This document shows, in pieces, positions 794-60,600 of a stretch of DNA of 64,000 nt. A program made the translations under genes and the position numbers. Numbering within the stretch: position 1 is the stretch's first letter; each line of letters opens with the position of its first letter. The DNA comes from Candidatus Latescibacterota bacterium. Its GTDB lineage: Bacteria; Latescibacterota; UBA2968. The notes under the pieces were generated by a model, which saw only the letters and a list, made by a program, of their open reading frames with translations, was not told where the DNA came from and searched no databases. Where the stretch lies: the NCBI GenBank assembly GCA_022821275.1, contig JAJEDY010000002.1, positions 28,561 to 92,560 of the forward strand. The letters run 5' to 3'.

Positions 794-1999
794 TTACACC
801 AAACCCCACATCTCATCAACATCCTCCTGATACGCACAAACCTCGCCGGATATCACATCATCCACCTTGACGACCTGCCCGCTTTTCCCCGACTCGTAAA
901 TCGCCTCGCTCACGGCCTTGCTCTTAAGCCCCTCTTCGGCATCGATTTCCACATCGCGCCCAACACTCAGCGCATCGATAAAATCCCACAACTCAATCGC
1001 CATGCCATCGGTTAGCCCATAGGGAAAGAGACGATCCTTCTCGCCCTGGCTCAGTGAACCGAGAAACATATCTTTCAGTTGGGACACACCATAAGTCGTC
1101 CCATCTACAAATTGGCATTCGCCGCGCGCCTGAGACGCCGCCGGATGGAAAATATCGCGCTCCACAATCGTCCCCTTGCTCCCGGTGAGATTGAGCTGGG
1201 TAAATCCCTTGCCGGGCGCGCTAACCGTCCACGACCACGTGCCGATCACACCACTTTCAAAATTGAAAATACTGGTCCAAAAATCCTCGCGACTGTCATC
1301 GACCAGATCATCGCCTTTTTTGTGGGGACGCTGTTCCATTTGTTCCACACGCGCATAAACACTCTCGACCTCCCCAAACCAGTAACGCATCGTATCCACC
1401 CAATGTGCGCCGCTATCCATAACCATTCCGCAACCGCCGAGTTTGCGATCCACGCGCCAGTGCCAATCGGGATAATTCGCGGGATCCTGCCATCCCGACC
1501 TGATGGCGTACCACAACCTGGGCTCGCCGAGCGGACCGCCGTTAAACGCCCAGTGAATCGTGCGCTGTCCAACACTGCGACGACACTGTTCGGCATTCGC
1601 GGCGATCTTATTGCAACGTTTGGCTGTCTCGATAATTTTATGCGTGGCTTTAACCGTCACGCCAATGGGTTTTTCGCACAGAATATTCACACCGCCTTCG
1701 AGCAACTCACAGGCGAGCACGTGATGCAGACCGTGCGGACTGCATATATCGGCCCCATCGAGATCGGACTCTGAATTGAGCAGATCCTCAACCGAGGGAT
1801 AACTTTTAACCTCCCATCCGGTCTTCCCATTGATCTGATCGGCAAATGCCTGCGCGCGACTGATATCGCTATCAACCGTGGCCACAATGCGAAATCGGTC
1901 TTCTCCCTTATCGATAAGCTCTCCATACCGCCGAAGATGCCCACCGGCAATACCGCCACAGCCGACAAGCGCGAGATTTACAATTTTTCCTCTGGACAT
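794..1999 (-). CDS. Gfo/Idh/MocA family NAD(P)-dependent oxidoreductase
   Basis: N-terminal Rossmann MSRGKIVNLALVGCGGIAGGHLRRY. Start chosen at ATG 1997-1999, preceded by GAAAGGAAAA. That ATG overlaps the upstream sulfatase stop (TGATG), suggesting translational coupling. Confidence 0.8.
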   Translation of the reverse strand: MSRGKIVNLALVGCGGIAGGHLRRYGELIDKGEDRFRIVATVDSDISRAQAFADQINGKTGWEVKSYPSVEDLLNSESDLDGADICSPHGLHHVLACELLEGGVNILCEKPIGVTVKATHKIIETAKRCNKIAANAEQCRRSVGQRTIHWAFNGGPLGEPRLWYAIRSGWQDPANYPDWHWRVDRKLGGCGMVMDSGAHWVDTMRYWFGEVESVYARVEQMEQRPHKKGDDLVDDSREDFWTSIFNFESGVIGTWSWTVSAPGKGFTQLNLTGSKGTIVERDIFHPAASQARGECQFVDGTTYGVSQLKDMFLGSLSQGEKDRLFPYGLTDGMAIELWDFIDALSVGRDVEIDAEEGLKSKAVSEAIYESGKSGQVVKVDDVISGEVCAYQEDVDEMWGLV

Positions 2000-3279
2000 C
2001 AATTTTCCTTTCTCTGGTGATAGTCCGCCATCGCCTCCCAATAGTAAGGCGTGGGAATCGGACTCTTGAGCGACGGATCATTTACATCTTCCATCCATTG
2101 CCATAGGCGTTGGCTCAACGCATGATACACATCCCGATATTCGGGTTTATGGGCAACATCCTCAAACTCATTGGGATCTTTTTCCAGATCGTAGAGTTGC
2201 GCCACGGGCTGTTTGATACGCGGCCTGGGAGGATCGGTCATATCCACGGGCACATCTATCAAACGCCGCGGGCTAAAATTGCGAATAAACTTGTAGCGAT
2301 CGGTGCGAACACTGCGACTATCGCTACCCTGAAAAATAGAAAAAGCCGCATCGCGCGTGGGTCCCGCATCGGGGTTCTTGAACACACTGGCAAAACTCAA
2401 ACCCTCCACATTATCGGGAATGGGATGGTCTATGAGATCCATAAGCGTGGACAAAAAATCGACATTGCTGAGCAAATGGTCACAACTCTGTCCTCCCCGA
2501 ACAACGCCACCGGGCCAGCGCATAAGCAATGCAACGCCAATACCCGCATCATAGCAAAACCACTTCGCCCTCGGAAATTCAATCCCGTGATCAACCGTAA
2601 AAACCAGCAGCGTATCGTCTTCCAACCCACTCTCTCTCAACGCATCGGTAATAATCTGAACTGCCTCATCAACGCGGCGGATCGCACCCTGTTGCAGAGC
2701 GAGTTCCCGGCGCGACATCTCGTCATCAACCAGATAAGGCGGCACATCAATACCCTTGCTATCATCAGGCCCCACATCGCCAAAATCGTGCGGACGATGG
2801 GTCTCAAAAAAACCGACCTGCGCGTAGAACGGCGTCCTGGAACCCGCGTCTGCCTTGAGAAAATCCGCCAGCGCATGAGCAACCACAAGCGCATTTGCGC
2901 GACGGCCCGTTTCATCGCGCTGTGCAAAAACCGCTTCAAAACCCAGATTCTCGGTATTGGACGCCTCGTGTTGCAAACCAAAAAGAGCTGTATAATATCC
3001 CGCATCGCGCAAAATATGCGAAAGGTGTCGCTCGCCCTCATTAAAACACCAATCCCACGGCGAATGCGTCAGACCAACCAAACCATTGCTCTGTGGATAG
3101 CGCCCCGTAAGCATAGCCCCCCGACTGGGGCTACACACCGGACTCGTCGTAAAATAATTGGTAAACTTAAACCCATCGTCGGCAATCGCGTCAATCGCAG
3201 GTGTGTGTACCGTATCGACACCATAACACCCAAAATGCCGTCCTGTATCGTGCGTGGTAATAATGATAATATTTGGCAT
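1999..3279 (-). CDS. Formylglycine-dependent sulfatase (arylsulfatase family), no signal peptide
   Basis: MPNIIIITTHDTGRHFGCYG...SPVCSPSRGAMLTGRYP gives the C-x-P-x-R sulfatase signature plus LTG. Start at the ATG giving MPNIIII (3277-3279), 6 nt downstream of GGAGAT. The N-terminus is not hydrophobic. Confidence 0.85.
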   Translation of the reverse strand: MPNIIIITTHDTGRHFGCYGVDTVHTPAIDAIADDGFKFTNYFTTSPVCSPSRGAMLTGRYPQSNGLVGLTHSPWDWCFNEGERHLSHILRDAGYYTALFGLQHEASNTENLGFEAVFAQRDETGRRANALVVAHALADFLKADAGSRTPFYAQVGFFETHRPHDFGDVGPDDSKGIDVPPYLVDDEMSRRELALQQGAIRRVDEAVQIITDALRESGLEDDTLLVFTVDHGIEFPRAKWFCYDAGIGVALLMRWPGGVVRGGQSCDHLLSNVDFLSTLMDLIDHPIPDNVEGLSFASVFKNPDAGPTRDAAFSIFQGSDSRSVRTDRYKFIRNFSPRRLIDVPVDMTDPPRPRIKQPVAQLYDLEKDPNEFEDVAHKPEYRDVYHALSQRLWQWMEDVNDPSLKSPIPTPYYWEAMADYHQRKEN

Positions 3280-3288
3280 AGAATCTCC

Positions 3289-7564: not shown

Positions 7565-7604
7565 ACTTAAAAGACCTCGATTTCTCCAATAGACTTGACA
7601 CACA

Positions 7605-7841
7605 TTGGACTTGGCAGGGAAAAATGTTCGTATTGAATCGCTCTTTATCGATGAGGGTTTTGGCAGTCTGGATTCAGAAGTTCTCGACCTCGCCATTGGA
7701 ACCCTTGAAGGATTGCATCAGGACAGTAAAAGTGTGGGTGTGATCTCGCATGTCGAACTTCTAAAGCAGCGTATCGCAACCCAGATCAGGGTAAAAAAAC
7801 TAACAGCCGGCAACAGTACATTAAAAATCGTTGAAGGTTAA
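7605..7841 (+). pseudogene. sbcC: Remnant of the sbcC 3' end (last ~75 codons of the SbcC ATPase C-terminal lobe)
   Basis: VRIESLFIDEGFGSLDSEVLDLAIGTLEGLHQDSKSVGVISHVELLKQRIATQIRVKK matches the SbcC C-terminus (IDSLFLDEGFGTLDSETLD...GKTIGVISHVEAMKERIPVQIKVKK). In-frame TGA(7596) and TAG(7590) lie immediately upstream. No coiled-coil or Walker A part is present. Confidence 0.7.
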
Positions 7842-7847
7842 CCTTCT

Positions 7848-9263: not shown

Positions 9264-9302
9264 CTCGCAAACGAATAGACGAATAGACGAATCAGCGAAT
9301 CA

Positions 9303-9334
9303 ACGGGCGGGCACGGGGGCACCGCCCCTACAAC
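9303..9334 (+). repeat. GC-rich hairpin element copy 2, followed (in minus-strand gene direction) by tandem GATTCG-type 8-9-mers, in the MFS leader
   Basis: CAACGGGCGGGCACGGGGGCACCGCCCCTAC preceded by ACGAATAGACGAATAGACGAATCAGCGAATCAAC (9268-9302). Confidence 0.5.
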
Positions 9335-9352
9335 ATCGTACAACCGACATCG

Positions 9353-10096: not shown

Positions 10097-10130
10097 AAAA
10101 TCCTCGCTATGTTGTGGTTACTTGAAAACC

Positions 10131-11012: not shown

Positions 11013-11045
11013 GTCGCACCTCCTTGAAAAATGGGCAAACTACCA

Positions 11046-31100: not shown

Positions 31101-31823
31101 TTGTCGTTAATCACAGTTATCGGACGCGGACATTCGGGCACGCGGTTAATCTCGCACACGCTCTATGCCAGCGGTATGTACATGGGGCGCTTGATCAATG
31201 CATCGGGCGATAAAATGCCTCCCCAAGCGCTTTATGATGCGTGCCGTGTAATGGCAAAATACGTAAAATGGAATGGCGATCTATCGTGGGATTTTGATGA
31301 CCTGCACACCATGGATATCGATCCCGAATTTACCCACCTGGTCGAAACCTATTTGCAAGACGTGCTTCCCCCCAGAAATCGCTACGAGAACTACGGATGG
31401 AAATTGCCCGAAACCACACTGGTCTATCCGTGGATCGTGCGCATGTTTCCCGATGCCAAATACATTCACTGGGTGCGCGATCCGCGCGATTGTATTTTGA
31501 GTGGACACAAAACAGATGATTTGCGCGACTTCGATATTCAATATCCGCACACAGATGACATACGCGAACGGCGGGCAATTTCCTGGTTGTATCAGTATGA
31601 AATCATGAAATCCACGCCCGTGCCCAAACACTGCATCACCGTGCGATTTGAGGATGCGATATTAAATCAGGATGAGACATTTGCGCGGGTAGAGAAATTC
31701 CTCGGATTTCCATTGGGCAAAGTAATCGTGCGTCCCGATTCCGTGGGCAGGTGGAAAACCGATGATGGCGTCTATGATTTTGAGTTCTTGCATCCCGCGA
31801 TGAAAGAATACCAATACATTTAG
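31101..31823 (+). CDS. Sulfotransferase-family protein (PAPS-dependent fold), tentative
   Basis: VIGRGHSGTRL resembles the 5'-PSB P-loop (x-R/K-S/T-G-T-T-x). KYIHWVRDPRDCILS resembles the 3'-PB motif (R-D/N-P-x-D...S). AAGGAGG precedes TTG at 31101. Confidence 0.5.
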   Translation: MSLITVIGRGHSGTRLISHTLYASGMYMGRLINASGDKMPPQALYDACRVMAKYVKWNGDLSWDFDDLHTMDIDPEFTHLVETYLQDVLPPRNRYENYGWKLPETTLVYPWIVRMFPDAKYIHWVRDPRDCILSGHKTDDLRDFDIQYPHTDDIRERRAISWLYQYEIMKSTPVPKHCITVRFEDAILNQDETFARVEKFLGFPLGKVIVRPDSVGRWKTDDGVYDFEFLHPAMKEYQYI

Positions 31824-39393: not shown

Positions 39394-40230
39394 ATGAAGC
39401 TCACGTACATCATGTTCACGAAGCACCTCGAAGGCCTGGACATTCCCGAAATCATCGAAGCTCTCCAATCGGTAGGTGTGCAGGGCGCAGATTTGTGTGT
39501 GCGAGAGGGATATCCTGTAAACCCGGACAATATCGACAAAGCACTACCCGAAGCCGCCAAACAGTTTGAAGCCGCGGGCCTGTGTATTCCACTCGTAACA
39601 GCTCCCGGTGATTTTAATCGCCCGGATATGGATTACACCGAGCGTTATTACGGCGCACTGGGCGAAGCCGGCGTGGCGCATGTGAAACTGGGCTACTGGC
39701 ACTGGTCGGATGCGAAATACTATTGGGATCAGTTGGATGAAATCCGGGGCTGGATGGAAGGCTTTGAGAAATTGTCGGAAAAACACGGCGTAAAAACCGT
39801 GGTACACAACCATTCGGGCAAATCGATGGGATTAAATTCATGTGCCGTCATGAACGTGGTCAAGGGATTCAACCCCGAACACATCGGCGTATTTTCCGAC
39901 CCGGGACACCTGTCGATATGTGGCGAACCCATAGAAATGGCGCTGGATATCGTGCGCGAGTACCTCTCCGTCCTGGCATTCAAAGACTTAATCCGCCAGC
40001 GACCTCTGGGACGAACCGTACAGGGGACGCCCACGGGCGGAACAATGCGACTGGGACAGGGATTTGGCGATTGGCCCGCAGTCGTAAAAACACTGGATCG
40101 ATTGAACTTTGAAGGACCCGTGAGTTTCCACAGCGAATACAGCGGCGAACCAATAGAAACCGTAATTGACCTGGCGAGGATCGACGTGCGTTTCTTCAAC
40201 GCAATGCGGGCAGAACACGAAAGCGCGTAA
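39394..40230 (+). CDS. Sugar phosphate isomerase/epimerase (xylose isomerase-like TIM barrel)
   Basis: GAAAGGAAAG precedes ATG 39394 (MKLTYIMF...). VHNHSG, DPGH and FHSEYSGEP ligand pattern. Its stop is 3 nt before the next sulfatase start. Confidence 0.7.
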   Translation: MKLTYIMFTKHLEGLDIPEIIEALQSVGVQGADLCVREGYPVNPDNIDKALPEAAKQFEAAGLCIPLVTAPGDFNRPDMDYTERYYGALGEAGVAHVKLGYWHWSDAKYYWDQLDEIRGWMEGFEKLSEKHGVKTVVHNHSGKSMGLNSCAVMNVVKGFNPEHIGVFSDPGHLSICGEPIEMALDIVREYLSVLAFKDLIRQRPLGRTVQGTPTGGTMRLGQGFGDWPAVVKTLDRLNFEGPVSFHSEYSGEPIETVIDLARIDVRFFNAMRAEHESA

Positions 40231-40233
40231 TCT

Positions 40234-41655
40234 ATGCCCAACCTGCTCTACATCTTCGCCGATCAACTCCGCCCGCAATCCTGTGGCTATATGGGCGACA
40301 ACCGCGCCCACACCCCCAATATCGACCGCCTATCATCTGAAGGCATCAGCTTTGTCAATGCCACCTCGGTCTATCCCGTGTGCAGCCCGCATCGCGCATC
40401 CCTCTTTACGGGCTGTTATCCCACCACCAATGGCTACGTGATGAACGAATTGAGCGCCCGCACCGATTTGCCAACGCTTGCCGGCACATTGACGCGGAAC
40501 GGCATAAATTGTGCCTACATCGGCAAATGGCACATTTACGCAACCGAAGGCAAAGTTTATAAACAGGCCGGCGATTTTCACAAGAATCCCGCCAATCAAT
40601 TCGTGCCCCCAGGCCCGCACCGATTGGGATTTGACCACTATTGGGCAGCCTACAACTTCAACCACAGCTATTACAAGGGATTTTATTACGAAGACAAATT
40701 TGAACGCATCGACATTCCTGCTTATGAACCCGATGCCATGACCGACCTCGCCATCTCCTATCTCGAAAACGCATCCGAAAATCCAAATCCCTTCGCACTC
40801 TTCGTCTCTTATGGCACACCTCATCAGCCCTGGAACTGGGACAATGTCCCCGAAGAATGGGGTATGCACTTCAAAGACATGGCCTTTGATCTGCCGCCAA
40901 ATTACCGGGACGGATCGGGAGAATACTGGCACGCATGGTTCGACCGCGATTGGTGGATGAAATCCGTCAAACCCAACCTCGTTGAATGGCAGCAAATCTA
41001 TGCCGCTATGACGGCCAACCTCGACTGGAACGTGGGCCGAATTTTAGACGCGATAGACAGATTCAACCTCGCGCACGACACGCTCGTCGTCTTCACATCA
41101 GACCACGGCGAAATGTTTGGCGCACACGGTCGCGTTCAGAAAAATATCTACTATGAAGAAGCCGCGCGCGTCCCCTTTCTCATGCGCTGGCCCAATCGCA
41201 TCGCACCCAACTCTGAAAGCGATGCCTGCCTCAACACGCCCGATATCATGCCCACGCTACTCTCACTTATAGACGTCGATATCCCCGATGGTATCGATGG
41301 ATTTGACCTTTCGCATTGCGTATTTGGTCAGCGTGGAGACGAACCCGAAGCCGCATTCTTACAGGGCATGGGTCCCAGTGTCGATTGGGACGATGGCTTT
41401 GAATGGCGCGCTTTGCGCGACAAACAATATACCTACGCCATTGAAAACCAGGGAGAATCCCTCTACAATCACTGCGAAGACCCTCTGCAATTGCACAATC
41501 TCGCCAGCAACCCCGACCACGCCAGAACAATCCAGCATTACCGCGACCAGATCCGGGCGCGCATGGACGCATTAAACGACACCTTTGAACCCATTACCTT
41601 TTACCGCGATCACTGGATCGAAAATGGCCGCGTTATCAGAGGCGCGCGCGATTGA
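40234..41655 (+). CDS. Formylglycine-dependent sulfatase, no signal peptide
   Basis: MPNLLYIFADQLR...SVYPVCSPHRASLFTGCYP (C-x-P-x-R). Confidence 0.85.
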   Translation: MPNLLYIFADQLRPQSCGYMGDNRAHTPNIDRLSSEGISFVNATSVYPVCSPHRASLFTGCYPTTNGYVMNELSARTDLPTLAGTLTRNGINCAYIGKWHIYATEGKVYKQAGDFHKNPANQFVPPGPHRLGFDHYWAAYNFNHSYYKGFYYEDKFERIDIPAYEPDAMTDLAISYLENASENPNPFALFVSYGTPHQPWNWDNVPEEWGMHFKDMAFDLPPNYRDGSGEYWHAWFDRDWWMKSVKPNLVEWQQIYAAMTANLDWNVGRILDAIDRFNLAHDTLVVFTSDHGEMFGAHGRVQKNIYYEEAARVPFLMRWPNRIAPNSESDACLNTPDIMPTLLSLIDVDIPDGIDGFDLSHCVFGQRGDEPEAAFLQGMGPSVDWDDGFEWRALRDKQYTYAIENQGESLYNHCEDPLQLHNLASNPDHARTIQHYRDQIRARMDALNDTFEPITFYRDHWIENGRVIRGARD

Positions 41656-41667
41656 GGAGATCACCCA

Positions 41668-43098
41668 TTGACATCAAAACGTCCCAACATTCTCTGGATC
41701 TGCACAGATCAACAACGCTACGACACCATCCATGCCCTCGGCAATGAACACATCCAGACACCCAACCTCGACCGCCTCTGCGCCGAAGGCGTCGCATTCA
41801 CACATGCCCACTGCCAGAGCGCGATATGCACGCCCAGTCGTTCCAGCTTTCTCACCGGGCTTTATCCCAGCACCGTACACGGCAACCGCAATGGCAATGC
41901 CTATTTCCCGGCAAATGAACGCGTACAACTCATCACCAAACGCCTCGCAGATGTCGGATACGATTGCGGTTTATCGGGCAAACTCCACCTCGCCTCTGCC
42001 TGGAACGGTGAAGAACAACGCGTTGACGATGGATATCGCAAATTCTGGTATAGCCACTCACACAATCAGGGCATCGGTATTGGCAACCAGTACACCGACT
42101 GGGTCACCGAACAGGGCATAGACCTCGGCGACGTCTTCCAAAGAAAAAAAGACGGCACATACGGCAACTATCGCCCCGACATGAATCCCCAACACCACCA
42201 GACCACCTGGTGTGCGGACCGCGCCATTGAATTTATCGAATCCCCCCACGACGGCCCCTATCTCATGAGCGTCAACCCCTTTGACCCGCACGGACCTTTT
42301 GACGCCCCCGACACGCACAAATACAATCCCGCCAGTCTGCCGCCGCCGCTTTTTTGCGAAAACGACCTGCAAACACAAACGCGACTCAAACGCTTTTTTG
42401 CTGACAAAGAAGGCAACCCTCCCGGGGACCGCGAACAGCACAACAAAGCGTCATACTACGGCATGATCGCCCTTATCGACGAAAACGTCGGCCGCATGCT
42501 CGATGCACTTGAGCGCACGGGCCAACGCGAAAACACCGTCGTCATCTTCACGAGTGACCACGGCGAAATGCTCGGCGATCACGGCCTCACCGGCAAAGGT
42601 TGTCGCTTCTACGAAGCCCTCGTGCGGGTTCCCCTCATCATCTCGTGGCCCGGCACCTTTCTCCAAGGACACCGCGCAGATGGCCTCACCGCGCTCTTAG
42701 ACATTGCGCCCACTCTCGCCGACCTCGCTGGCATCCCTCTCGAATGGACACACGGCAAATCCCTCATCCCAATACTCACGGGCGAACATCCCGGGCACGC
42801 GCACCACGAATTTGTGCGCTGTGAATACTACGATGTCGTCGATAAATTTGCCCCACACGCCTCCGAAAAACACAAACCCTGTTGGGCGACCATGTTGCGC
42901 AACGACCGCTACAAACTCGTCGTTTACCACGATGCCGACTATGGCGAACTCTACGACCTGCGAGAAGACCCCGATGAATTTCACAACCTCTGGGAAGACC
43001 CATCTCACACAGATCTGAAATACCAGCTCACAAAACAAAATTTCGACCACACCATTATATGCGCCGACCCCGGTCCCCAGCGCATCGGAAGGTATTAA
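41668..43098 (+). CDS. Formylglycine-dependent sulfatase, no signal peptide
   Basis: (TTG)TSKRPNILWICTDQQR...SAICTPSRSSFLTGLYP. GAGGAG RBS. Confidence 0.85.
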   Translation: MTSKRPNILWICTDQQRYDTIHALGNEHIQTPNLDRLCAEGVAFTHAHCQSAICTPSRSSFLTGLYPSTVHGNRNGNAYFPANERVQLITKRLADVGYDCGLSGKLHLASAWNGEEQRVDDGYRKFWYSHSHNQGIGIGNQYTDWVTEQGIDLGDVFQRKKDGTYGNYRPDMNPQHHQTTWCADRAIEFIESPHDGPYLMSVNPFDPHGPFDAPDTHKYNPASLPPPLFCENDLQTQTRLKRFFADKEGNPPGDREQHNKASYYGMIALIDENVGRMLDALERTGQRENTVVIFTSDHGEMLGDHGLTGKGCRFYEALVRVPLIISWPGTFLQGHRADGLTALLDIAPTLADLAGIPLEWTHGKSLIPILTGEHPGHAHHEFVRCEYYDVVDKFAPHASEKHKPCWATMLRNDRYKLVVYHDADYGELYDLREDPDEFHNLWEDPSHTDLKYQLTKQNFDHTIICADPGPQRIGRY

Positions 43099-43129
43099 CA
43101 CGAGCCAGCGTTTCAATGGAGAGCGCAAC

Positions 43130-43897
43130 ATGAAATTCAAAACACCGTTAGACGTCAGACTCGCTTGCAGAGCCAACGAACTCGAAGGCTTCGCCTCCCG
43201 CGCCCTGCCCGGCTACCTGTGTGTCAACGTCGCCTTTCTGGACACAGACTACGCCGACGATTTCGAGGCATTCTGTCGCGCCAACCCGAAACCCTGCCCG
43301 CTGATCGCTAAAATGGAACCCGGCCAAACGGACTGCCCCAAGTATGCACGCGCCCTCGACATCCGAACCGACCTGGGTTCATACGACATCGTACGCGATG
43401 GCGAAGTCACCGAACAGCGACAGGACATCGTAGATCTGTTCGACGACCGAACCGTTACCTTTCTGATCGGATCGAGCGTCTCCTTTGACGGCCTCCTGAC
43501 CGAGAAAGGCTACCCCGCCGCATTCGGACCGACCATCCAACTCACGTCGCTCCCGTGCGAAACAGTCGGACCCTTCTCGGGCAACATGGCCGTCACCATC
43601 CGCTCATTCGATTCGGCCATGATCGACGATGTATGGGAGTTCACCAGCCACTTCCCCGGATGTCACGGCGCCCCAATCGGAAAAAACAATGCGGATGAAC
43701 TTGGCATCGAAGAACTGAACGTCAACATGGACGGTCACACGTTTGAAGTACCCGAAGGAACGGACCGCTTGTATTGGGCTTGCGGCATCACACCCCGCAT
43801 TGTCGCCGAGCAGGCCAGGCTCCCGTTCATGATATCCTACACCCCTGGCCACGCAATGATCACCGACATTCCGACAGAGAGCCTGTACCAGGCCTGA
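43130..43897 (+). CDS. DUF1445/putative hydro-lyase (D-glutamate cyclase-like) family protein, tentative
   Basis: YLCVNVAFLDTDYADDFEAFCRANPKPCPLIAKMEPGQ resembles the family block (ANLVILP...A.DFL.FCQRNPKPCPLL). Size ~255 aa fits. Confidence 0.5.
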   Translation: MKFKTPLDVRLACRANELEGFASRALPGYLCVNVAFLDTDYADDFEAFCRANPKPCPLIAKMEPGQTDCPKYARALDIRTDLGSYDIVRDGEVTEQRQDIVDLFDDRTVTFLIGSSVSFDGLLTEKGYPAAFGPTIQLTSLPCETVGPFSGNMAVTIRSFDSAMIDDVWEFTSHFPGCHGAPIGKNNADELGIEELNVNMDGHTFEVPEGTDRLYWACGITPRIVAEQARLPFMISYTPGHAMITDIPTESLYQA

Positions 43898-43956
43898 CCT
43901 GGATCTCGAAACACCCAGTTCATACCCCGGTCCCAAACGCATAGGAAGATATTAGC

Positions 43957-45333
43957 ATGAACCAGCGACCCAACATCTTGCTCATCATGAGCGACGAACA
44001 CGATCCCGCAGTCACCGGCTGTTACGGTCACCCCCATATCGAAACGCCACACCTGGATCGCCTCGCATCCGAAGGCACCACCTTTGACAACGCCTATACT
44101 GCCTGCCCGATATGCGTACCGGCGCGCATGTCCTTTATGACCGGACAATACGTCCACCAGATCGGCACCTATGACAACGGCTCGCCTCTCGCGGGAACAA
44201 TCCCCACAATGGGCAGCTATCTCGAAGCCGCTGGCTACGAAACCGCAGTCTGTGGTCGCACCCACTTCATAGGACCCGAACGCCTGCACGGCTTTGGCGT
44301 GCGACTCATGGACGACGCCGAAAAATGGAAACACTGGAGTATGAGTGCCCCCTCGCGCACACCCGACAACCGGCGTGGGAGCAACAGCCACGTCACCGAA
44401 TGCGGTCCCGGCGAAAACTGGCAAATCGACTACGACAGCACAGCCACCGACCTCTCCGAACGCTTCCTCAAATCCCGCGCGCAATACCCCGACCGTCCCT
44501 TCTTCCTCTACACCGGCTTCATGAACCCCCACTTCCCACTTCTGTGTCCGCGGGAATACTTCGACCGCTACTATCCCGACCGCGTCGCCCTGCCACACAC
44601 GAGAACCGAACCCTGTGACACCCAACACCCCTCTATACAGCAACTCCGATACTGGCTGCGCAATGAAGAGCCCCTGAGCGACGACATCTCCACCACTGCA
44701 ACCGCTGCTTACTACGGCCTCATCTCTTTCACGGACGACCTCATTGGTCGCCTGCTCGACATTATCGATAACTCACCCCTGCGCGACAACACCGTCGTCA
44801 TCTACGTCAGCGACCACGGCGAAATGGGTGGACACCACGGCATATGGCAAAAACAATGTTTCTACGAGCACTCCGTGCGCGTCCCCATGATCATTCGCCA
44901 TCCAAACGCCGAGGGCAACCAGCGCATCGCCGCAGGAGCCAACCTCATCGACATCCTCCCCACCCTTCTCGACCTCGCCGAACAGGACCCCGCGCCACTA
45001 CCCGGCAGCAGCCTCCGCCCCGCCATCCTCGGTCATCCCTTCCCCGACCGCCCCATCTTCAGCGAATACCATGCCCTCGGTGCTCTAACTGGCGGCTTCA
45101 TGATTAAAAAAGGCGACTGGAAATACATCCACTACGTCGGCCTTCCCGACCAATTATTCAACGTCGCCAACGACCCCGATGAAATTGAGGACCGCGCCGA
45201 CGATCCCACCTGTGCCGACATCCTCTCCGATCTGCGCGCCGACCTCCACAACATCGTCAACCCCGAAGAAATTGATCAACGCGCCAAAGCAAATCAAAAA
45301 ATCAAAGGCATTAACAGAGCGGCCAGGGGTTAG
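43957..45333 (+). CDS. Formylglycine-dependent sulfatase, no signal peptide
   Basis: MNQRPNILLIMSDEHD...ACPICVPARMSFMTGQY (C-V-P-A-R). Confidence 0.8.
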   Translation: MNQRPNILLIMSDEHDPAVTGCYGHPHIETPHLDRLASEGTTFDNAYTACPICVPARMSFMTGQYVHQIGTYDNGSPLAGTIPTMGSYLEAAGYETAVCGRTHFIGPERLHGFGVRLMDDAEKWKHWSMSAPSRTPDNRRGSNSHVTECGPGENWQIDYDSTATDLSERFLKSRAQYPDRPFFLYTGFMNPHFPLLCPREYFDRYYPDRVALPHTRTEPCDTQHPSIQQLRYWLRNEEPLSDDISTTATAAYYGLISFTDDLIGRLLDIIDNSPLRDNTVVIYVSDHGEMGGHHGIWQKQCFYEHSVRVPMIIRHPNAEGNQRIAAGANLIDILPTLLDLAEQDPAPLPGSSLRPAILGHPFPDRPIFSEYHALGALTGGFMIKKGDWKYIHYVGLPDQLFNVANDPDEIEDRADDPTCADILSDLRADLHNIVNPEEIDQRAKANQKIKGINRAARG

Positions 45334-45335: not shown

Positions 45336-47534
45336 TCAGTTCCCAGGATCTAAAACCTCGTACTCACCCTGCGCCCATGCGTCTAACCCAGACGTATAGT
45401 ATTTGGAAAAACGGCGATCAGAAGCTCCCCCTGCAACATTTGTGTGTAGCACATCCTCTCCAAAATCGCAAATCATTCGAAAAGTTGGTGCAAGCGCGCC
45501 GCCTTTGAACACGCCAGCTTGAGAAACCGTCGAACGACTCCCAATATTTGCAAACGAATAATCAAAACCCAAAACCCTCGGCAACTTCCCCCTGAAAAAA
45601 ATATGCTCAATATAAACCTTACTCACCTCGCCGTGCGGCACGGCTTTTTCCCTCAACCCGCGCTCAATCGCCGTTCGATACAGGTCTTCGCGCGACTGAT
45701 CTCCAAACCAGACCGATGCCTCGCTCAAAAGAATGCGATCAAAATATCCATGCAGAACACTGAACAGTGTCGTACCATCCAGCAAATGGATCATCATCTC
45801 TCGCCCCAAACCACTATCCCCAAAAACGAGCAAAACGAGTTCGCGATAAACGCGCTCAAAAAGCGTCGCCCCCAGCGAATCCGCATCATAACAAAGATCC
45901 CAGTCCCGCAATATATCCCCGTTCTCCGATTCTGGTAACAACGGACGTATAATTGCCATAAACTCCCTGGCCTGAATTGCGTGGAGGTCGTAGTGAATCC
46001 GCTTCATATCTTCTACGGTCAGGTCACCCTTCTCCCGCAATAGCTCACAAATTCGATCCGCGCGATAAGACGAAATCGACAATTTCATCGGATCAGTCTG
46101 CCCCATAAAATTGAGATCCTGATTTGCCGTCACAATAAAATCACATTCTGGATTCATCGCACGCGGATACAATATTGGATCGACCATCCCATCCCAATTC
46201 TGTTTCTCATCCCACCCCAAATACGGAAGCAACCCCGATGTCCCCTCGGGTTGTTTGGGCACCAGCCCCCCGAGTTGATAGCCAATATTCCCCGCCCGAT
46301 CTGCAAACACCCAATTAAACGGCGCAAATGTCAACCCCGAAAAATAATCCCGTGCCTCTTCAACACCCTTTGCCTTTACAATTCTAAAAACACAATCCAG
46401 CGCATCCGCACCCGTTCCTTTTTGCTGCTTGCCCGTCCACGCATAACACAAATAATACCCATCCTCATCGACCTCACCTTCCAACAAACCGCGATCCGTT
46501 TCGCAAACACGCACCCCTATCGGATCCCGTTTTTTGGGCCGAATGACCTCTTCCCGCACACGCAAAGGCATCCATTTATCTCCACGCCTGTACCTCCCAT
46601 CCTTCACCTCCTCCACAAAATAATCACACACATCGGCGGTACCATAAGTCGCTGCCCACGACAAATGTTGTGATCGTCCCATAGCCACAACCGGCAATCC
46701 CGGCAAAGTCGCACCCATCAAATAGTCCTGATCCCCAGCCAGCACCGCCGGATACCACACCGAAGGCAATTGCAATTGCAGATGCGGATCCCCACACAAC
46801 ATCGCCCATCCAGATGCCGTCTTTGACGGACGAACAGCCCAATTATTGCTCGCTGAAAAATCGGGCAACAAATCGCGCCACATCACATAAGATGGAATCA
46901 TCGGACGCACCAGACGCACCTTCTTTATCAAATCGATGTACTCCTCTGATACATCATCCCGAATCGCCGGAAAAAGTTCCTTCAACCGCCCGATATCCAC
47001 ACCCTTTTGAATCAACTGAACAATCAACTTCTCCATATCGCCTTGCACTTGTGAAAGCCCCACAAACCCGATCAGCTTGACCATCAGCAGTGCATCTGCC
47101 GGCGTCCACTCATCCGGTTGATATCCCATCAGCTTAAATTCAAAAGGCGTTCCCGTTGCGCGAACCGCCTCATTCACCCCCTTGCAATACGCATCCAGAA
47201 CCGCTTGCAATTCCGGTGACAAATGCCGCGCTTCCCGATCTGCATCACCCGCTATATTGAGCCAGCGCATAAACCGATCTGCCTCAATCAAATTCTCATC
47301 CGCTTTCAGATATGCCGACGCATTCCCGCGTCCAATGAGCTTCAGCAACCACATATGCATCTGCCGATCCCGACCATGGGCATAACCCAGACCGTAATAC
47401 CGGTCTCCTTCATCCCGCGCCAAAATATGCGGAAACCCATGCGCCATCCGCCGAATACACACCTCGCCTTTAATACCTGGTATCACAATTTTTTTTGCAT
47501 CGCGTTTCATGCATTGACCTTTTACACATTCCAC
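45336..47534 (-). CDS. Penicillin acylase family Ntn-hydrolase (penicillin amidase/AHL-acylase-like), no signal peptide
   Basis: 730 aa, GYAHGRDRQMHM, and the catalytic beta-subunit N-terminus SNNWAV. Start may be the second ATG (47510, MKRDAKK, preceded by AAAAGG). Confidence 0.75.
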   Translation of the reverse strand: MECVKGQCMKRDAKKIVIPGIKGEVCIRRMAHGFPHILARDEGDRYYGLGYAHGRDRQMHMWLLKLIGRGNASAYLKADENLIEADRFMRWLNIAGDADREARHLSPELQAVLDAYCKGVNEAVRATGTPFEFKLMGYQPDEWTPADALLMVKLIGFVGLSQVQGDMEKLIVQLIQKGVDIGRLKELFPAIRDDVSEEYIDLIKKVRLVRPMIPSYVMWRDLLPDFSASNNWAVRPSKTASGWAMLCGDPHLQLQLPSVWYPAVLAGDQDYLMGATLPGLPVVAMGRSQHLSWAATYGTADVCDYFVEEVKDGRYRRGDKWMPLRVREEVIRPKKRDPIGVRVCETDRGLLEGEVDEDGYYLCYAWTGKQQKGTGADALDCVFRIVKAKGVEEARDYFSGLTFAPFNWVFADRAGNIGYQLGGLVPKQPEGTSGLLPYLGWDEKQNWDGMVDPILYPRAMNPECDFIVTANQDLNFMGQTDPMKLSISSYRADRICELLREKGDLTVEDMKRIHYDLHAIQAREFMAIIRPLLPESENGDILRDWDLCYDADSLGATLFERVYRELVLLVFGDSGLGREMMIHLLDGTTLFSVLHGYFDRILLSEASVWFGDQSREDLYRTAIERGLREKAVPHGEVSKVYIEHIFFRGKLPRVLGFDYSFANIGSRSTVSQAGVFKGGALAPTFRMICDFGEDVLHTNVAGGASDRRFSKYYTSGLDAWAQGEYEVLDPGN

Positions 47535-50075: not shown

Positions 50076-53000
50076 CTACTCATAAAAAAACAAACTCTCT
50101 CGTTCTCGACAAAATTCGTAAAACGCCTTGAAACATCGGTTGGCTTTTAATGCGTCCTCTGATTGTGGAATGGCAGAGAAAAATGCCCGGCTACCCACCA
50201 CAATCAACTTTTGTCTGGCGCGTGTGATCGCCACATTAAAGCGATTGGGATTGTTCAAAAATGGACTGGTGACATAGTCGGGATCGGATGTGGTGAAAGC
50301 ATACAAAATGACATCGCGTTCCGCGCCCTGAACGCGTTCTACCGTATCGATCAAGGGCAATTTGGCATTGGCATCGCCCAGTCGCTTTGCAAGGCTGTCA
50401 GCGGTGGCGTTATTTTGTGCGCGGTGGGGAGAAATCAGAGCGATTTGATCGGCATCCAAACCGTGTTCGGCGATCAACCGATGGGCGAGTTGGGTTGTGA
50501 TCTCGATTTCTTCATCGGATTTCTGGTGGTGACCGCGGTGATCTACGATGAGGAGTACGACCGGTTTTGCCGGGTCGAGAACGCGATCTAACAGATCGCG
50601 GTGGTCGGTGTGTTGCAGCGCGAGGCGGTTTCGCGCATTGCCAGCGTCTGCGCGAAGTTCGCCATCATACCACATGTGACTGGGAAAAGAGCACAAGTCT
50701 TCGTTCATTCGATACGTGCGATCCAGGCGGACGCGGTGGGCAGAGTCGTATTGACTGAGCAGATAAGACAGCGCGGAATGGTGTGTGCCATTTTCCTCCT
50801 TGCGATCTGACAGGACAATGGGTGGCAATTGTTTGGTGTCTCCTGCAAACAGGAAATTCCCCTTGCCATAGAGCAAGCTCAACAGGGCCTGGGGAATGAG
50901 CATCTGAGATGCCTCATCGAATACAACCCAATCAAACACCTGTGGGAAAGTTCCCTTGTGACCTTCAAAAAGCTGATAGAGGCCAAATCCCGTGGCACCC
51001 AAAATCGCATAAGAAGACTCTGCAAGTGTTTCCACATCCTCTAAGCGTTCTACCCCGCGCTCTGTCAAATCCCACCGTCCCAATTTGAAGCATCGTGCGG
51101 GAAAGCCTTGCAAGCCGTGTTGTTCCACGAGCGCGACCACTTTGGCGAGCACCTGGTCAATGGCCTGATGCGTCAACGCGCTAACGGCAATCCGAAACGG
51201 CCTGCCCTCCTCTTGAGCATGCAGGATCAATGCAATGAGTATCCAACCCAACAAGTGCGTTTTGCCCGTTCCAGGCGGCCCTTCAATCAGGCTCAAGCGA
51301 TGTGTAAAAGGCAATGATAATGCCTGTTGTTGCGTCTCATTGAGTCCTGCTATTGCGCCAAATCCGCGCATCCAATTTTGCACCCATCTCAACGCATCGG
51401 GTTCTCGCGCCGCCTGCCAGTTGCCGGACAGAAGTTGTGACAGGGGATGCGCGCGGTCTTCCGAAAAAACGGTCTGAACAGCGTGAACCAGCCGAGGGCC
51501 ATTCCAATCGGTCAAGTCCTCTTCCAGAGAATACATAAGCTTCGGATTTAAGGCCAATCGCCCCTGCCGAGATTGTACCCATAAGTGCTCTGCGCTGTAA
51601 TCTGTAAGGATGACGGGCAAACCGTTTTGTACATCTGACAGGCCAATGGGCGCGAGTTTGAGAAAATCGCCCGCGCGGAATTTTGAGAGGCCGGTTTCTG
51701 GTACAATTTGAAATTCGTAGAGAAAACGGCCTTCGCGGTCAAGCGTGGTTTTTCGAAAACGGATGGGGCCCAGGGCGCGAAAGCGTTCCACGCGCTCAGA
51801 CAGGGGAAGGGCTTGTACGGCGAGCACGTCTTCTTCGTGGAGCCGCCGCTCCTCGGACAGAAAATTCAAATAGGCCGTTTGTGTGCTCTGCATATCATCT
51901 ACCGCGGGATCCCATTCGCCCTTTTCCCACGCGCTCGTCAAGTGCGAAGACACCCATTGCCACAGCGATATTTGCAAGCGCAATACGGTGTTGAGATATT
52001 CGACCATTTTTTTTTCTTGTATCCCTTCGCCATCATCAAAATGAAACAGACTTTGCGGCTCATTGAGTTCGGCATTGAGACCCAACAGGCGGTTGAGTGC
52101 GAAAAGCGTGGGATTGCCCGGCATGGGAAAATCGAATTGCGAAGCAATCAGCTTTTGTAAATCTGTGCGGTGGTTGCGATGGGGCAAAAACAAAAAAGAC
52201 AGGTCTTCTGATCCCTCGCACCAATCCTCAAAAGTCTGCCAGCAGCGCGTTCCAAAATGAAAAACATGTGGCCCTCGTCCGCCTTTGATACCTCGATTCC
52301 AGACGGACAAAAAACGCGCCGTGAAATCCCGCAACGCCTCTGGCAACTCGCCCTCTGATGCGACTTCGAGGATCTGGCTCTCGACCACCGTTTTCCCCTG
52401 CAGGGCGCGCCAACCTATCACGCGTGGGTGTCCCGAAACGGAGTCTTCTGCGATGTGTATGAAAATGGCTGTGGATAAATTACTCGGATAAGACCGCGTT
52501 TGTTCTTCCTTCAGACCGATTTTATTTTCTTGTAGCGCGGCGAGTTGGCCCGAAAGTTGTGTTTTCTGGTGTGGGCTGAAAAGATCGTCCCCGGAAACGG
52601 AAACAGATTCAAACCACGCATGGGCAGATGCGATGGTTTTGAGATCGCATTGGCGAAACTTTTGCAGCGCACCCGCGCTCAAATGCGGCACAAGCTGAAT
52701 ATCCTCTTGAAGTGCATCCCGATAACACGCCTCAAAATTGGGGCACGTCGTACAGTGGGTTTGGAGGTGATAACGCGCGCGGGCTGGGGCGCGTTGCAAT
52801 ATGCTGTTCATATTTCGAAACAGCGTGGGCAGTGCCGCCAGGTAGGGTTCGAGATCAAAAATGTGCGGTTCGGGCGTTTTGTCATGCCGAGAAGAGCGCA
52901 GCATCAAGAACCCCGAAGATGCCACGCACATGGGCAACTCGTGTTGCGCGATCACGCGGTCGAGTATATAGGCGTAAAATGCAACCTGCCACTTCTGTGT

Positions 53001-55745: not shown

Positions 55746-55760
55746 GATAGCTATAAATGC

Positions 55761-55795
55761 GAATTAAAAATTGGGAATTGGGAATTAAGAATTAA
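55761..55795. repeat. Five tandem heptads (gaattaa aaattgg gaattgg gaattaa gaattaa), 16-50 nt upstream of the big helicase-nuclease gene start
   Basis: Seen directly. On the coding (minus) strand it reads TTAATTC TTAATTC CCAATTC CCAATTT TTAATTC then GCATTTATAGCTATC-ATG. Confidence 0.5.
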
Positions 55796-55843
55796 GGGTC
55801 GGGAACGGTGCGGGCCGCAATGATAATCGCTATTCCTGTCGTC

Positions 55844-55868
55844 ACGCCTGCAGGTCTTAAGCAGGCGT
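55844..55868. promoter_or_regulatory. Perfect 8-bp-stem palindrome/hairpin ACGCCTGC-N9-GCAGGCGT between ATPase gene C and the big gene
   Basis: About 20 nt downstream of the gene C stop. No U-run follows on the transcribed strand, so it reads as an operator or RNA-stability/processing element rather than an intrinsic terminator. Confidence 0.35.
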
Positions 55869-55887
55869 CCAGTACGCTTTATTCGCA

Positions 55888-57105
55888 TTATAAAATTTGA
55901 GCTTGATGGGCGAGGTCCAATTCATCGACCAGACCTTTGAGCCGATAGCGCGTCTCCTGCCCTTGCATGTGCGATAATCGCTGCGCCATTTCGCGCCGCA
56001 CAGCGGCCTTGAGTGGCTGCCATTGATAGGCTTTAGCATGTAAGTGCATCAACTTCTCGATCAACGCGTGCCATTCTTTCGCAGACAAATCGCGAAGTAG
56101 ATAGTGTTTCATATCTGTCCATGCACTGGCGTAATCTTTCTCAAAATAGGGAATTTCCTCTTCATTGCGGATTCGCACCCGGTCGTATTCTTCTTCATCT
56201 ACTTTTTGAAAAAAGTCGTCTGTAAAAGCAAAAACCGGATAAATAGATGCGGATGGAACGGCGGAGAAAAGCATCTGATCCAAATTCTGATAACTGCGAC
56301 TGCGGCTGGTCACGCGCACTTGAGAAATCGATTCTCCCTCGTCAAACAGCAACACCCATCCGCGGTAGCCCATCAATTGAAAAAGCCGCCCCAATCCGCG
56401 AATTACTTGCAGGTAGGGTTCTGCACCTTTACAGGTAAGCGATGTATCATTGTAAAAATCAACCTGTCGGTATTTGAGTGCGTGGCGCAAGCGATAGACT
56501 GGCACCACATCACCTGCAAGTGCGCGGGAAAGCAGGTAGGGAAATTCGCGCGGGCGGTATGCCGCGTGTTTTTTAGTGCCGCGCTGTCGCTTTGAAAGGG
56601 AGATTGTTTTTTGAGCCATCGCGGTCAGGACAGATCGGAACAGGTGCGGCATTTCCCGCTGCAAAAGCGGCGCGACTCGGGCCTCAAAGTCTTTGCGTGA
56701 TAGGTCACTTGCCCAGGCGCGCCATCGCGCTGCCAACGTGGTGTCTGCATCGGGAAATCTCATAGAGGCGACCAGGGCATGATAGACTCGTCGCATATCG
56801 TGAAAGGGAATCTCTCGAGGATCTAAATTGATGAAGGTGGTTACAAAATTTTCGCGCAGGGCCAGATCGTGGATGTAATTCAAACTGTGCGATTTGCCCT
56901 GCCCATAAGCCCCACAGATGCACAGATGGGTTGGCTTATTTTGGTCGAGTTGTTGAAAATCGCGGTCAATGATTTTTTTTAGATGGCTTTCGCGGGCTGT
57001 GAGCAGACGAACCGCAACAGGATCAAAAAGTCCTTCTCGCAGGCGTTCTATGGCACGCCGTAGGTGGAATGCCGTTTCATTGGATCGCGTTTGGAGAGAG
57101 GTCAT
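55888..57105 (-). CDS. BrxD-like (DUF2791-type) P-loop ATPase, paralog 2
   Basis: Walker A LCICGAYGQGKSHS, Walker B WVLLFDEGES, ~400 aa. Start at the ATG giving MTSLQ (57103-57105), overlapping the upstream gene stop as TGATGA. The first in-frame ATG (57117) is also possible. Confidence 0.55.
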   Translation of the reverse strand: MTSLQTRSNETAFHLRRAIERLREGLFDPVAVRLLTARESHLKKIIDRDFQQLDQNKPTHLCICGAYGQGKSHSLNYIHDLALRENFVTTFINLDPREIPFHDMRRVYHALVASMRFPDADTTLAARWRAWASDLSRKDFEARVAPLLQREMPHLFRSVLTAMAQKTISLSKRQRGTKKHAAYRPREFPYLLSRALAGDVVPVYRLRHALKYRQVDFYNDTSLTCKGAEPYLQVIRGLGRLFQLMGYRGWVLLFDEGESISQVRVTSRSRSYQNLDQMLFSAVPSASIYPVFAFTDDFFQKVDEEEYDRVRIRNEEEIPYFEKDYASAWTDMKHYLLRDLSAKEWHALIEKLMHLHAKAYQWQPLKAAVRREMAQRLSHMQGQETRYRLKGLVDELDLAHQAQIL

Positions 57106-58394: not shown

Positions 58395-58417
58395 GTGTCA
58401 TGTCCTTTCTCCTGCAT

Positions 58418-59355: not shown

Positions 59356-60600
59356 TTACTTCATCCGATCCAGCACGGGTTGTAATTTTTGTCGCACTGC
59401 CTCTGCTTCTGCACCTCCATCGACAATGGGATACTCTTCCAACTCATCTGCTACCACATCGTACAAATCGCCCGTATCGTAGAGCTTCCAGCGTTTATCC
59501 TGTGCCCATCGCTTTAAGTAATAGCCCTCCTTACCCCATCCGGGCAAAGGATCGTGATGGGCAAAAATCCACTCGCGCGGCGTTCCCGTCTCGCCCTTTA
59601 ACTGCGACAAAAAAGACACCCCATCAAACACATCGTCCTCGGGCAAAGGAACGCCAGCCATATCCATCATAGTGGGCACAAAATCGCTGCAATCGATCAA
59701 ATCATCACACACAGACCCCGGTGGAATCGTACCCGGCCAACTCGCAACAAATGGCACCCGCGTACCCGCATCAGTCGAAAGCCCCTTTCCCCCCTGGAAC
59801 TCGCGACCATGAATAATAGAAGTCACCTGACGAGGCGAACCATTATCGCCTATAAACAAAAGTAAAGTATCCTCTCTAAGCCCAAGCTCATCCAATTGAT
59901 CCACAATCCGCCCAATCACCACATCCATATACTCAACCATATCTTTAAAATACTTCACCCCACTATCGTGTCGATTCTCAGACCATATTTCACTATGGGG
60001 CGTGGGTTCAAACGGACCGTGTGTCAGCGCCATGGGATAATACACAAAAAACGGCTCATCTTTATGCCGCTCGATATAATCGCAAATATAAGCCGTATAA
60101 ATATCTGGACCGTACTTACCCTCTGTATCCTCCAAATACGCTCCATTTTGTTGAATCACCGGATCGGCATATCGCGACCCCTTATCCTCGGTATGTTCCG
60201 TATGCCACAAACAATACTCGTCAAAACCCGAATCTTCCGCCAATTGCCCCTTGCCGCGCCACTCGGGCTCAAAATCCGGCGGATTATAGCTATACATTTG
60301 CCATTTACCCGAAATACACGTTTTGTACCCAGCCGCTTGCATCAAATGTCCAAAAGTGCGCTCCTCGGGGTCCATAACGCCAAAAGCTCTCCAATTGCGA
60401 AAATTGTATTTACCCGTCATCAACTGTAACCGCGTCGGCGTACACAACGGCAGGACATACGCATGATCAAAACGCATTCCCTCCTTGCTCAAACCATCCA
60501 GCACGGGCGTTTGATACGACTCACCTCCATAACACCCCAGGCATTCATATCCCAAATCATCGGACAGAATCAAAATAATATTCGGTTTATCAGAAGCCAT
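59356..60600 (-). CDS. Formylglycine-dependent sulfatase, no signal peptide
   Basis: MASDKPNIILILSDDLGYE...VLPLCTPTRLQLMTGKY (C-T-P-T-R). GAAAGGAG RBS. Confidence 0.85.
   Translation of the reverse strand: MASDKPNIILILSDDLGYECLGCYGGESYQTPVLDGLSKEGMRFDHAYVLPLCTPTRLQLMTGKYNFRNWRAFGVMDPEERTFGHLMQAAGYKTCISGKWQMYSYNPPDFEPEWRGKGQLAEDSGFDEYCLWHTEHTEDKGSRYADPVIQQNGAYLEDTEGKYGPDIYTAYICDYIERHKDEPFFVYYPMALTHGPFEPTPHSEIWSENRHDSGVKYFKDMVEYMDVVIGRIVDQLDELGLREDTLLLFIGDNGSPRQVTSIIHGREFQGGKGLSTDAGTRVPFVASWPGTIPPGSVCDDLIDCSDFVPTMMDMAGVPLPEDDVFDGVSFLSQLKGETGTPREWIFAHHDPLPGWGKEGYYLKRWAQDKRWKLYDTGDLYDVVADELEEYPIVDGGAEAEAVRQKLQPVLDRMK

Follow-up and report, generated by a model that had tools for sequence, protein, structure and literature searches.

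The stretch analysed here, called the window throughout, comprises 64,000 nucleotides from a Candidatus Latescibacterota bacterium (GenBank assembly GCA_022821275.1, contig JAJEDY010000002.1, positions 28,561 to 92,560 of the forward strand), and positions are counted from its first letter. Our subject is a cluster of five co-directional genes on the plus strand, at 39394-45333, in which three sulfatases (A, B and C) are accompanied by a TIM-barrel protein and by a member of the DUF1445 family. A preliminary description of this DNA had proposed five plus-strand genes with short spacers, and they are so arranged: the spacers measure 3, 12, 31 and 59 nt, and an independent public annotation of this metagenomic scaffold (ENA ERZ23491296, scaffold_77, 181 kb) gives identical boundaries and starts for all five. 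At its downstream end, sulfatase C converges on a penicillin-amidase-family gene, with 2 bases between the two stop codons. The cluster reads as follows:

39394..40230, plus strand: xylose-isomerase-like TIM-barrel protein, 278 aa, first in the cluster (PF01261, AP_endonuc_2, E 6.5e-17)
40234..41655, plus strand: sulfatase A, 473 aa, CSPHR motif, leaderless (PF00884, E 2e-47)
41668..43098, plus strand: sulfatase B, 476 aa, TTG start, CTPSR motif, leaderless (PF00884, E 9e-47)
43130..43897, plus strand: DUF1445/UPF0317/D-glutamate-cyclase-family protein, 255 aa (PF07286, E 1.3e-27)
43957..45333, plus strand: sulfatase C, 458 aa, CVPAR motif, leaderless, choline-sulfatase-like (PF00884, E 1.2e-52)

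The first gene had been described as a TIM-barrel epimerase. That label amounts to a generic superfamily assignment, the top PDB match (IolE) having an E of 3.9e-5 only.

Two further sulfatases lie elsewhere in the window, both on the minus strand:

59356..60600, minus strand: sulfatase D, 414 aa, CTPTR motif, leaderless (PF00884, 165 bits)
1999..3279, minus strand: sulfatase E, 426 aa, CSPSR motif, leaderless (ATG at 3279 with GGAG 5 nt upstream; PF00884, 138 bits)

The total is thus five and not the six first reported. It was established by a six-frame search for C/S-x-P-x-R-xxxx-TG and by phmmer with each of the five against all stop-to-stop segments, and neither approach returned a sixth candidate.

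All five score far above the PF00884 gathering cut-off of 25 bits (A 162, B 160, C 180, D 165, E 138) and carry the C-x-P-x-R motif followed by xxxxTG, so that the claim of Cys-type formylglycine motifs is borne out throughout. In A and B the catalytic set is complete, comprising the N-terminal metal-binding acidic pair, Cys-x-Pro-x-Arg, GKxH, the PHxP histidine, SDHG and a distal lysine (in A these read D-Q, GKWH, PH.P, SDHG and K), and in C the only departure is a substitution of Lys by Arg, GRTH at 44242-44253 replacing GKxH. On these motifs A, B and C are real and catalytically intact sulfatases. The two outlying enzymes show variants of their own: GKWQ in D, and in E both GLQH and a histidine replacing the first metal-binding aspartate. 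Because the sulfatases are only 28-33% identical to one another, they are old paralogues rather than recent duplicates.

Their closest structural relatives differ accordingly. Sulfatase A is nearest to 2qzu, 8di0 and the 4-O-endosulfatase 6j66 (E 1e-52 to 1e-58); B to the promiscuous arylsulfatase/phosphonate monoester hydrolase (PMH) group represented by 4upi, 4upl and 2vqr, with NCBIfam PehA; and C to the choline sulfatase 6fny (E 1.7e-63). The preliminary description had allowed that membership of non-carbohydrate families would count against its view of the substrates, and by this PDB and NCBIfam proxy such relatives are found for B (arylsulfatase/PMH) and C (choline sulfatase). An identification of C as a choline sulfatase was nonetheless rejected: against TIGR03417, the BetC equivalog model, it scores 335.8 bits, below the cut-off of 433.45, and covers only positions 2-456 of 500, and no betA/betB or choline/betaine transport genes are found in the window or in two related contigs, L108 and L110.

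The DUF1445 gene between sulfatases B and C

The cluster is conserved in its own lineage. Proteins of the window fall into 90%-identity clusters of 58-217 members, named 'MAG: Gemmatimonadota bacterium' or 'Candidatus Latescibacterota bacterium', and the five proteins considered here into clusters of 145-217 members each. In one metagenome-assembled genome (MAG) the NCBI protein accessions run consecutively from the TIM-barrel protein to sulfatase C (MCE2432232 to MCE2432236), and in a second they do so from the TIM-barrel protein to DUF1445 (MCY3683520 to MCY3683523). A further strain, L114, has the same five genes and the same flanks at approximately 95% protein identity, and comparison of the window with it indicates purifying selection on all five genes, with ratios of non-synonymous to synonymous substitution rates (dN/dS) of 0.05-0.13, the values being 0.05 for the TIM-barrel gene and 0.06 for DUF1445.

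Beyond these strains the arrangement changes. In L108, the nearest distinct relative, the orthologue of B (86% identity) ends at 9434 and that of C (83%) starts at 9436, leaving one base between them and no DUF1445 gene; the junction reads ...CGCATCGGAAGGTATTAAC, followed directly by ATG..., so that C takes its ribosome-binding site from the end of B. In L110 (GCA_964384625.1), orthologues of B (65%) and C (57%) belong to a single operon, headed by GntR, whose five sulfatases are all leaderless and which likewise has no DUF1445 gene. In L108 the B-C pair also stands apart from the TIM-barrel and sulfatase A genes, with two amidohydrolases and a different sulfatase lying ahead of B; the operon is therefore a mosaic of at least three modules. 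A scan of the locus for promoters and terminators gave counts near the shuffle expectation.

Within the window, the same junction is present twice, on either side of the DUF1445 gene:

43067..43110, plus strand: junction copy 1, 32 nt from the 3' end of B, stop included, followed by a degenerate C start in which ATG has become ACG (repeat search family D1; L108 alignment)
43111..43923, plus strand: inserted cassette of approximately 813 nt with the DUF1445 gene (bounded by the junction copies; absent from the L108 B-C junction and from L110)
43924..43967, plus strand: junction copy 2, a decayed, non-coding B 3' end giving a GGAAG ribosome-binding site, then the true C start (repeat search; L108 alignment)

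The downstream part of copy 1, ACGAGCCAGCG, reproduces the start of sulfatase C, ATGAACCAGCG, in degenerate form, and the two 44-nt copies share 37 of 45 positions, where the best of 100 shuffles shares 28. Between them, the cassette consists of a 19-nt leader with its own GGAG, the DUF1445 open reading frame (ORF) and a 26-nt tail. Both copies are recognisable in L114, where they have decayed differently, copy 1 having a 9-nt deletion. When the flanks of DUF1445 genes were compared across relatives for the boundary of a mobile element, neither conserved flanks nor mobile-element features were found. Because B and C are linked without DUF1445 in both L108 and L110, and because the junction is duplicated around the cassette, the simplest reading would be that DUF1445 is a recent secondary insertion into an older B-C pair and not a conserved pathway partner. 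A role for it within a sulfatase pathway, which the preliminary description had implied, is not supported by this comparison, and no hidden role of that kind would need to be invoked.

The DUF1445 protein itself belongs to the PF07286 family. It scores 96.9 bits against PF07286 (cut-off 25), matches 3db9 with E 2.2e-41 over residues 22-251 and retains the invariant family residues; against NCBIfam PRK05463, 'putative hydro-lyase', it reaches 215.1 bits, below the equivalog cut-off of 324. Its homology to the characterised structures of the UPF0317/YcsI/D-glutamate cyclase family (3db9, Atu3911; 2pif) is full-length. The only biochemical assignment found for the D-glutamate cyclase family is that of the mammalian enzyme (PMC5339696).

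If DUF1445 and sulfatases were partners, their adjacency should recur across lineages, and it does not: it is confined to the window lineage (at least about 95% identity) and to a pair of contigs in which the sulfatase is not orthologous. About 11 further distinct contexts contain orthologues of the DUF1445 protein (59-86% identity), and about 10 of these contexts lack a sulfatase. The neighbours there include a GCE/CE15-like alpha/beta-hydrolase, MFS, PhyH, Glu_cyclase_2, CN-hydrolase, TyrRS, a DegT aminotransferase, DUF3604 and GH92, and there is no synteny between the window and these loci beyond DUF1445 itself, no flanking gene being orthologous to the window surroundings. The co-occurrence check was extended to more distant homologues (34-39% identity, among the matches listed), which inform on family background only and not on orthologue synteny; a sulfatase lies within 10 kb in 2 of 80 of these genomes and is absent in the other 78. 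The 131 flanking ORFs of the same homologues are led by LysR (17), LamB/YcsF (13), DctP TRAP (11) and GLUCM-like_C (5), with no sulfatase in the top 25 families, and this LysR/LamB-YcsF/TRAP neighbourhood is the known YcsF/YcsI-type, amino-acid-lactam-like context. The window protein is only 34-39% identical to the typical proteobacterial UPF0317 proteins, and differs from them in lacking the usual LamB/YcsF, LysR and TRAP neighbours and in sitting within a sulfatase operon.

Two observations concern the orthologues themselves. The most recurrent neighbour is an alpha/beta-hydrolase of 366-382 aa with weak glucuronoyl-esterase (PF22244) similarity, which stands directly upstream of a DUF1445 orthologue (82-86%) at five loci (L001, L003/L088, L005, L089 and the P0012 place) and is perhaps the original partner of the gene. 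In L100, at 2571-4199 on the plus strand, a 542-aa ORF contains the DUF1445 domain in its C-terminal part only (residues 396-533), its N-terminal half having no Pfam match; it may be a fusion or the product of an over-extended start.

Leaders, maturation and genomic context of the sulfatases

The preliminary description had also claimed that the sulfatases lack signal peptides, and had asked whether alternative upstream starts might add them; on both counts its view stands. The Pfam sulfatase model begins at residue 2 in A, 6 in B and 5 in C, the maximum 12-residue Kyte-Doolittle score at the sulfatase N-termini is below 1.0, and in-frame stops lie 1 codon upstream of the start in A (this being the stop of the TIM-barrel gene itself), 4 in B, 4 in C and 6 in D, which rules out longer N-termini for these four of the five. 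In sulfatase E the upstream frame is open for 47 codons. A longer form from a TTG at 3420 was considered and rejected, as it would run into an upstream ORF of 106 aa, and the ATG at 3279, with its GGAG, is the start chosen in the public gene call. Since no N-terminal extension is present, all five sulfatases are naturally taken to be cytoplasmic.

This condition had been called unusual. It is indeed the minority state, since other degraders export 87-96% of their sulfatases, but it has precedents: in two strains of Kiritimatiellales, 141 of 521 and 106 of 480 S1 sulfatases (22-27%) are predicted to be soluble and cytoplasmic (PMC6388578). A literature search with the phrase 'cytoplasmic sulfatases' returned nothing relevant. 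Among homologues of sulfatase B at 59-65% identity, some bear leaders (P0214, P0215, P0223 and P0245), whether of the twin-arginine translocation (Tat) type, for example MKRRDFLKK... and MNRRKFLGQ..., or Sec-like, and others are leaderless (P0211, P0216 and P0222). Because exported and leaderless forms coexist in one orthologous group, cellular location is evidently labile on an evolutionary scale within the B family.

A Cys-type sulfatase requires maturation, and the preliminary description had remarked on the lack of a formylglycine-generating enzyme (FGE) or anaerobic sulfatase-maturating enzyme (anSME) in the window. The lack itself is confirmed. No FGE (PF03781) or radical-SAM enzyme was matched by Pfam among the approximately 40 window ORFs scanned, and the six-frame translation of the window contains no FGE motif; the sole radical-SAM-type CxxxCxxC match is in a 162-aa ORF antisense to an AAA_14/DUF4143 gene, and the internal gaps outside the Pfam scan are at most 1.2 kb, the two largest holding only ORFs of 170 aa or less. 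As a finding to be remarked upon, it fails, because one remote maturase per genome is normal and its absence from the window is uninformative. A single anSME serves all the sulfatases of Bacteroides thetaiotaomicron and approximately 500 in sulfatase-rich Kiritimatiellales, and in sulfatase-rich marine heterotrophs the genome carries, away from the sulfatases, either one anSME gene or a few FGE genes (PMC6388578).

The surroundings of the sulfatases are those of small-molecule catabolism. Besides the genes described, the window encodes MFS transporters, two enolase-superfamily (MR_MLE) genes, GFO/IDH/MocA, HpcH aldolase and amidohydrolase genes, and three further TIM barrels. Sulfatase E is followed directly by a GFO/IDH/MocA oxidoreductase gene, and sulfatase D, on the minus strand, has an enolase-superfamily (MR_MLE) gene and an MFS gene upstream of it. 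The Pfam scan of the ORFs in the 64-kb window found no glycoside hydrolase (GH), polysaccharide lyase (PL) or TonB/SusCD genes. With leaderless sulfatases set among small-molecule catabolic genes and no GH, PL or TonB genes, the context would favour cytoplasmic processing of imported small sulfate esters. In this respect the earlier proposal of cytoplasmic desulfation of imported substrates holds for the absence of leaders, the Cys-type motifs and the small-molecule setting, while a carbohydrate-specific subfamily does not hold for B and C by the PDB and NCBIfam proxies.

Comparison with known systems bears on the same question. The small-ester Cys-type S1 sulfatases, namely BetC of Sinorhizobium meliloti (6fny), the Silicibacter pomeroyi enzymes (4upi and 4upl), the Rhizobium enzyme (2vqr) and AtsA of Pseudomonas aeruginosa (1hdh), share with the window proteins the PF00884 fold family, the C-x-P-x-R motif, the metal ligands and the catalytic His and Lys, and they supply the best PDB matches of B and C. 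The AtsA chain aligns to sulfatase C from its own residue 1, in keeping with the cytoplasmic location of P. aeruginosa AtsA; BetC, the S. pomeroyi arylsulfatases and the Rhizobium PMH are likewise leaderless, cytoplasmic enzymes. They differ in that identity with the window enzymes is approximately 30-37% and in that no bet, ats or phosphonate genes lie near the window cluster. Sulfatase-rich heterotrophs such as the Kiritimatiellales F1 and F21, Rhodopirellula, Lentisphaera and PAUC34f/Latescibacterota are similar in having many paralogous Cys-type S1 sulfatases per genome, and PAUC34f genomes are enriched in sulfatases (PMC7081726); unlike those of the sulfatase-rich marine heterotrophs, the five in the window are all leaderless and lie amid small-molecule catabolic genes rather than glycoside hydrolases. 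The polysaccharide utilisation loci (PULs) of Bacteroidota also cluster several sulfatases of different subfamilies with accessory enzymes. However, the window is devoid of SusC/D, GH and PL genes and its sulfatases lack signal peptides, a layout that points to cytoplasmic and not periplasmic action, and an interpretation of the locus as a PUL was rejected on these grounds, there being no carbohydrate-active enzyme (CAZyme) or TonB genes and all of the sulfatases being leaderless.

A model of the locus and its alternatives

We consider it probable that the locus is a mosaic operon of an uncultured, presumably marine bacterium, in which three leaderless sulfatases and a TIM-barrel protein accompany a later-inserted DUF1445 gene and the sulfatases act on imported small esters. 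The conserved core of this model would be the sulfatase B-sulfatase C pair, with the end of B carrying the ribosome-binding site of C. A DUF1445/UPF0317 cassette of approximately 813 nt would have entered the opening codons of C in an ancestor shared by the window strain and L114, and in doing so would have duplicated approximately 44 nt of the junction, so that C kept both a start codon and a ribosome-binding site. The inserted gene would be the ordinary DUF1445 orthologue of the lineage in a new location; purifying selection suggests that it is functional, and it is probably co-transcribed with its neighbours. The sulfatases themselves would remove sulfate from small esters taken up across the inner membrane, with sulfated mono- or oligosaccharides and other organosulfates of low molecular weight as candidate substrates, after conversion of the catalytic Cys to formylglycine in the cytoplasm by a putative FGE or anSME encoded elsewhere in the genome.

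Several points weigh against this account. That the change was an insertion in the window lineage, as opposed to a precise loss in L108, is argued from the duplicated junction and from L110 rather than from a rooted phylogeny. The DUF1445 gene has been retained inside the operon with a dN/dS of 0.06 relative to L114, and its co-expression with the sulfatases may bring some functional benefit. In L093/L094 a DUF1445 orthologue (75%) lies immediately downstream of a sulfatase, which makes a second, independent adjacency, albeit with a different paralogue that is 27-33% identical to A, B and C. On the side of the sulfatases, identity to the best structural relatives reaches only about 30-37%, and there may be non-classical export or Tat 'hitch-hiking' of proteins that have no leader of their own.

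The L093/L094 adjacency and the retention of the gene in a second strain would be expected if DUF1445 had been functionally recruited, such that an ester is desulfated, the product is cyclised or dehydrated by the DUF1445 protein and then isomerised by the TIM-barrel enzyme, the whole forming a cytoplasmic pathway. The gene is co-oriented and tightly spaced, with its own Shine-Dalgarno sequence, and the large 90%-identity clusters of all five proteins can be read in the same way. Yet B and C do without it in L108 and L110, the duplicated junction is the mark of a recent insertion, about 10 other orthologue contexts have no sulfatase, and the wider family, among the matches listed, keeps company with LamB/YcsF, LysR and TRAP genes. 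Moreover, because sulfatases make up approximately 10% of the genes in the window, one or two chance adjacencies are expected among about 22 neighbour slots in genomes so dense in sulfatases. We therefore judge recruitment of this kind rather improbable. A related proposal, that the DUF1445 protein was co-opted only after its insertion and now processes the desulfated product of B or C within a cytoplasmic organosulfate pathway, would accord with the purifying selection on the gene within the operon and with the second sulfatase adjacency, yet we hold it to be quite improbable; if true, it would give a bacterial UPF0317 protein its first physiological role, one tied to sulfate-ester catabolism.

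The remaining alternatives concern what the sulfatases do and where. They could serve to scavenge nutrients rather than to catabolise carbon, releasing sulfur or, through promiscuous hydrolysis of phosphate or phosphonate esters by the PMH-like B, phosphorus, after the manner of the AtsA-type systems of Pseudomonas. This is a live alternative, if an unlikely one. The L110 orthologues of B and C stand in their five-sulfatase operon beside cysN/cysC and sulfite-reductase genes, and the relatives of B (the promiscuous arylsulfatases and phosphonate monoester hydrolases, with PehA) and of C (choline sulfatase) would fit such a role; but there is no sulfate-ester ABC transporter, CysB-type regulator or cys gene near the window cluster, and the genes paired with sulfatases D and E are of the sugar-type oxidoreductase and dehydratase kinds. 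Related contigs appear, from record names such as the Tara-derived GCA_003444455.1, to come from seawater-type metagenomes, and seawater is rich in sulfate, making sulfur limitation unlikely. That the sulfatases are in fact exported to the periplasm or surface for PUL-type degradation of sulfated polysaccharides, their leaders having been missed through mis-called starts or non-classical export, seems to us highly improbable. The clear twin-arginine or Sec leaders of B homologues at 59-65% identity, and the prevalence of export among the sulfatases of characterised degraders, are in its favour, whereas the stops 1-6 codons upstream bar longer N-termini in four of the five, the catalytic first beta-strand begins at residues 2-6, and the 64 kb contain no GH, PL, carbohydrate-binding module (CBM), SusC/D or TonB genes.

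Under the insertion model the principal effect of this comparison is to remove a false lead, the hydro-lyase between sulfatases being a relocated gene. Two of the three apparent surprises of the locus would dissolve, namely the missing maturase and the DUF1445 partner, and the third, sulfatases without leaders, is a documented minority state. With every sulfatase in the window predicted to be cytoplasmic and set amid small-molecule catabolism, the sequence suggests uptake-first processing of organosulfates, not extracellular attack on polysaccharides. The locus would also provide a clean and datable case of a cassette entering a translationally coupled junction, where a 44-nt duplication preserved the start signals of the downstream gene.

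Other features of the window and of related contigs

The penicillin-amidase-family gene on which sulfatase C converges is intact in the window (45336-47534, minus strand, 732 aa); in L114 (13646-15828, minus strand) it is called as two pieces of 311 and 430 aa, possibly owing to a frameshift or as a pseudogene. In L110, the region 6461-13746 contains the GntR regulator and then five consecutive sulfatases of 472-496 aa, including the orthologues of B and C; with cysN/cysC and sulfite reductase beside it and a radical-SAM gene approximately 3 kb downstream, this cluster may be a sulfur-linked sulfatase operon. The window also encodes a Sulfotransfer_3-family sulfotransferase (31101-31823, plus strand), within a run of plus-strand genes that also includes a beta-lactamase-family member and a TIM barrel. 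The 106-aa ORF upstream of sulfatase E (3374-3693, minus strand) contains many Cys and His residues (...CQCVLCGSKAHLHVHHLHYKTLG...CCRRCHFIEHF), looks HNH-like on visual inspection and is annotated as a gene in the public record.

Finally, a block resembling a defence island occupies 50076-59251 on the minus strand. It comprises an 1889-aa helicase (PADLOC BrxHI/SngC, E 2e-87 and 7e-73), two BrxD/SngB-like ATPases and a 277-aa protein with no family match. The block is absent from L114, otherwise syntenic, where a ChlI-like gene is followed directly by the orthologue of sulfatase D. The block resembles a Shango- or BREX-accessory-type system.

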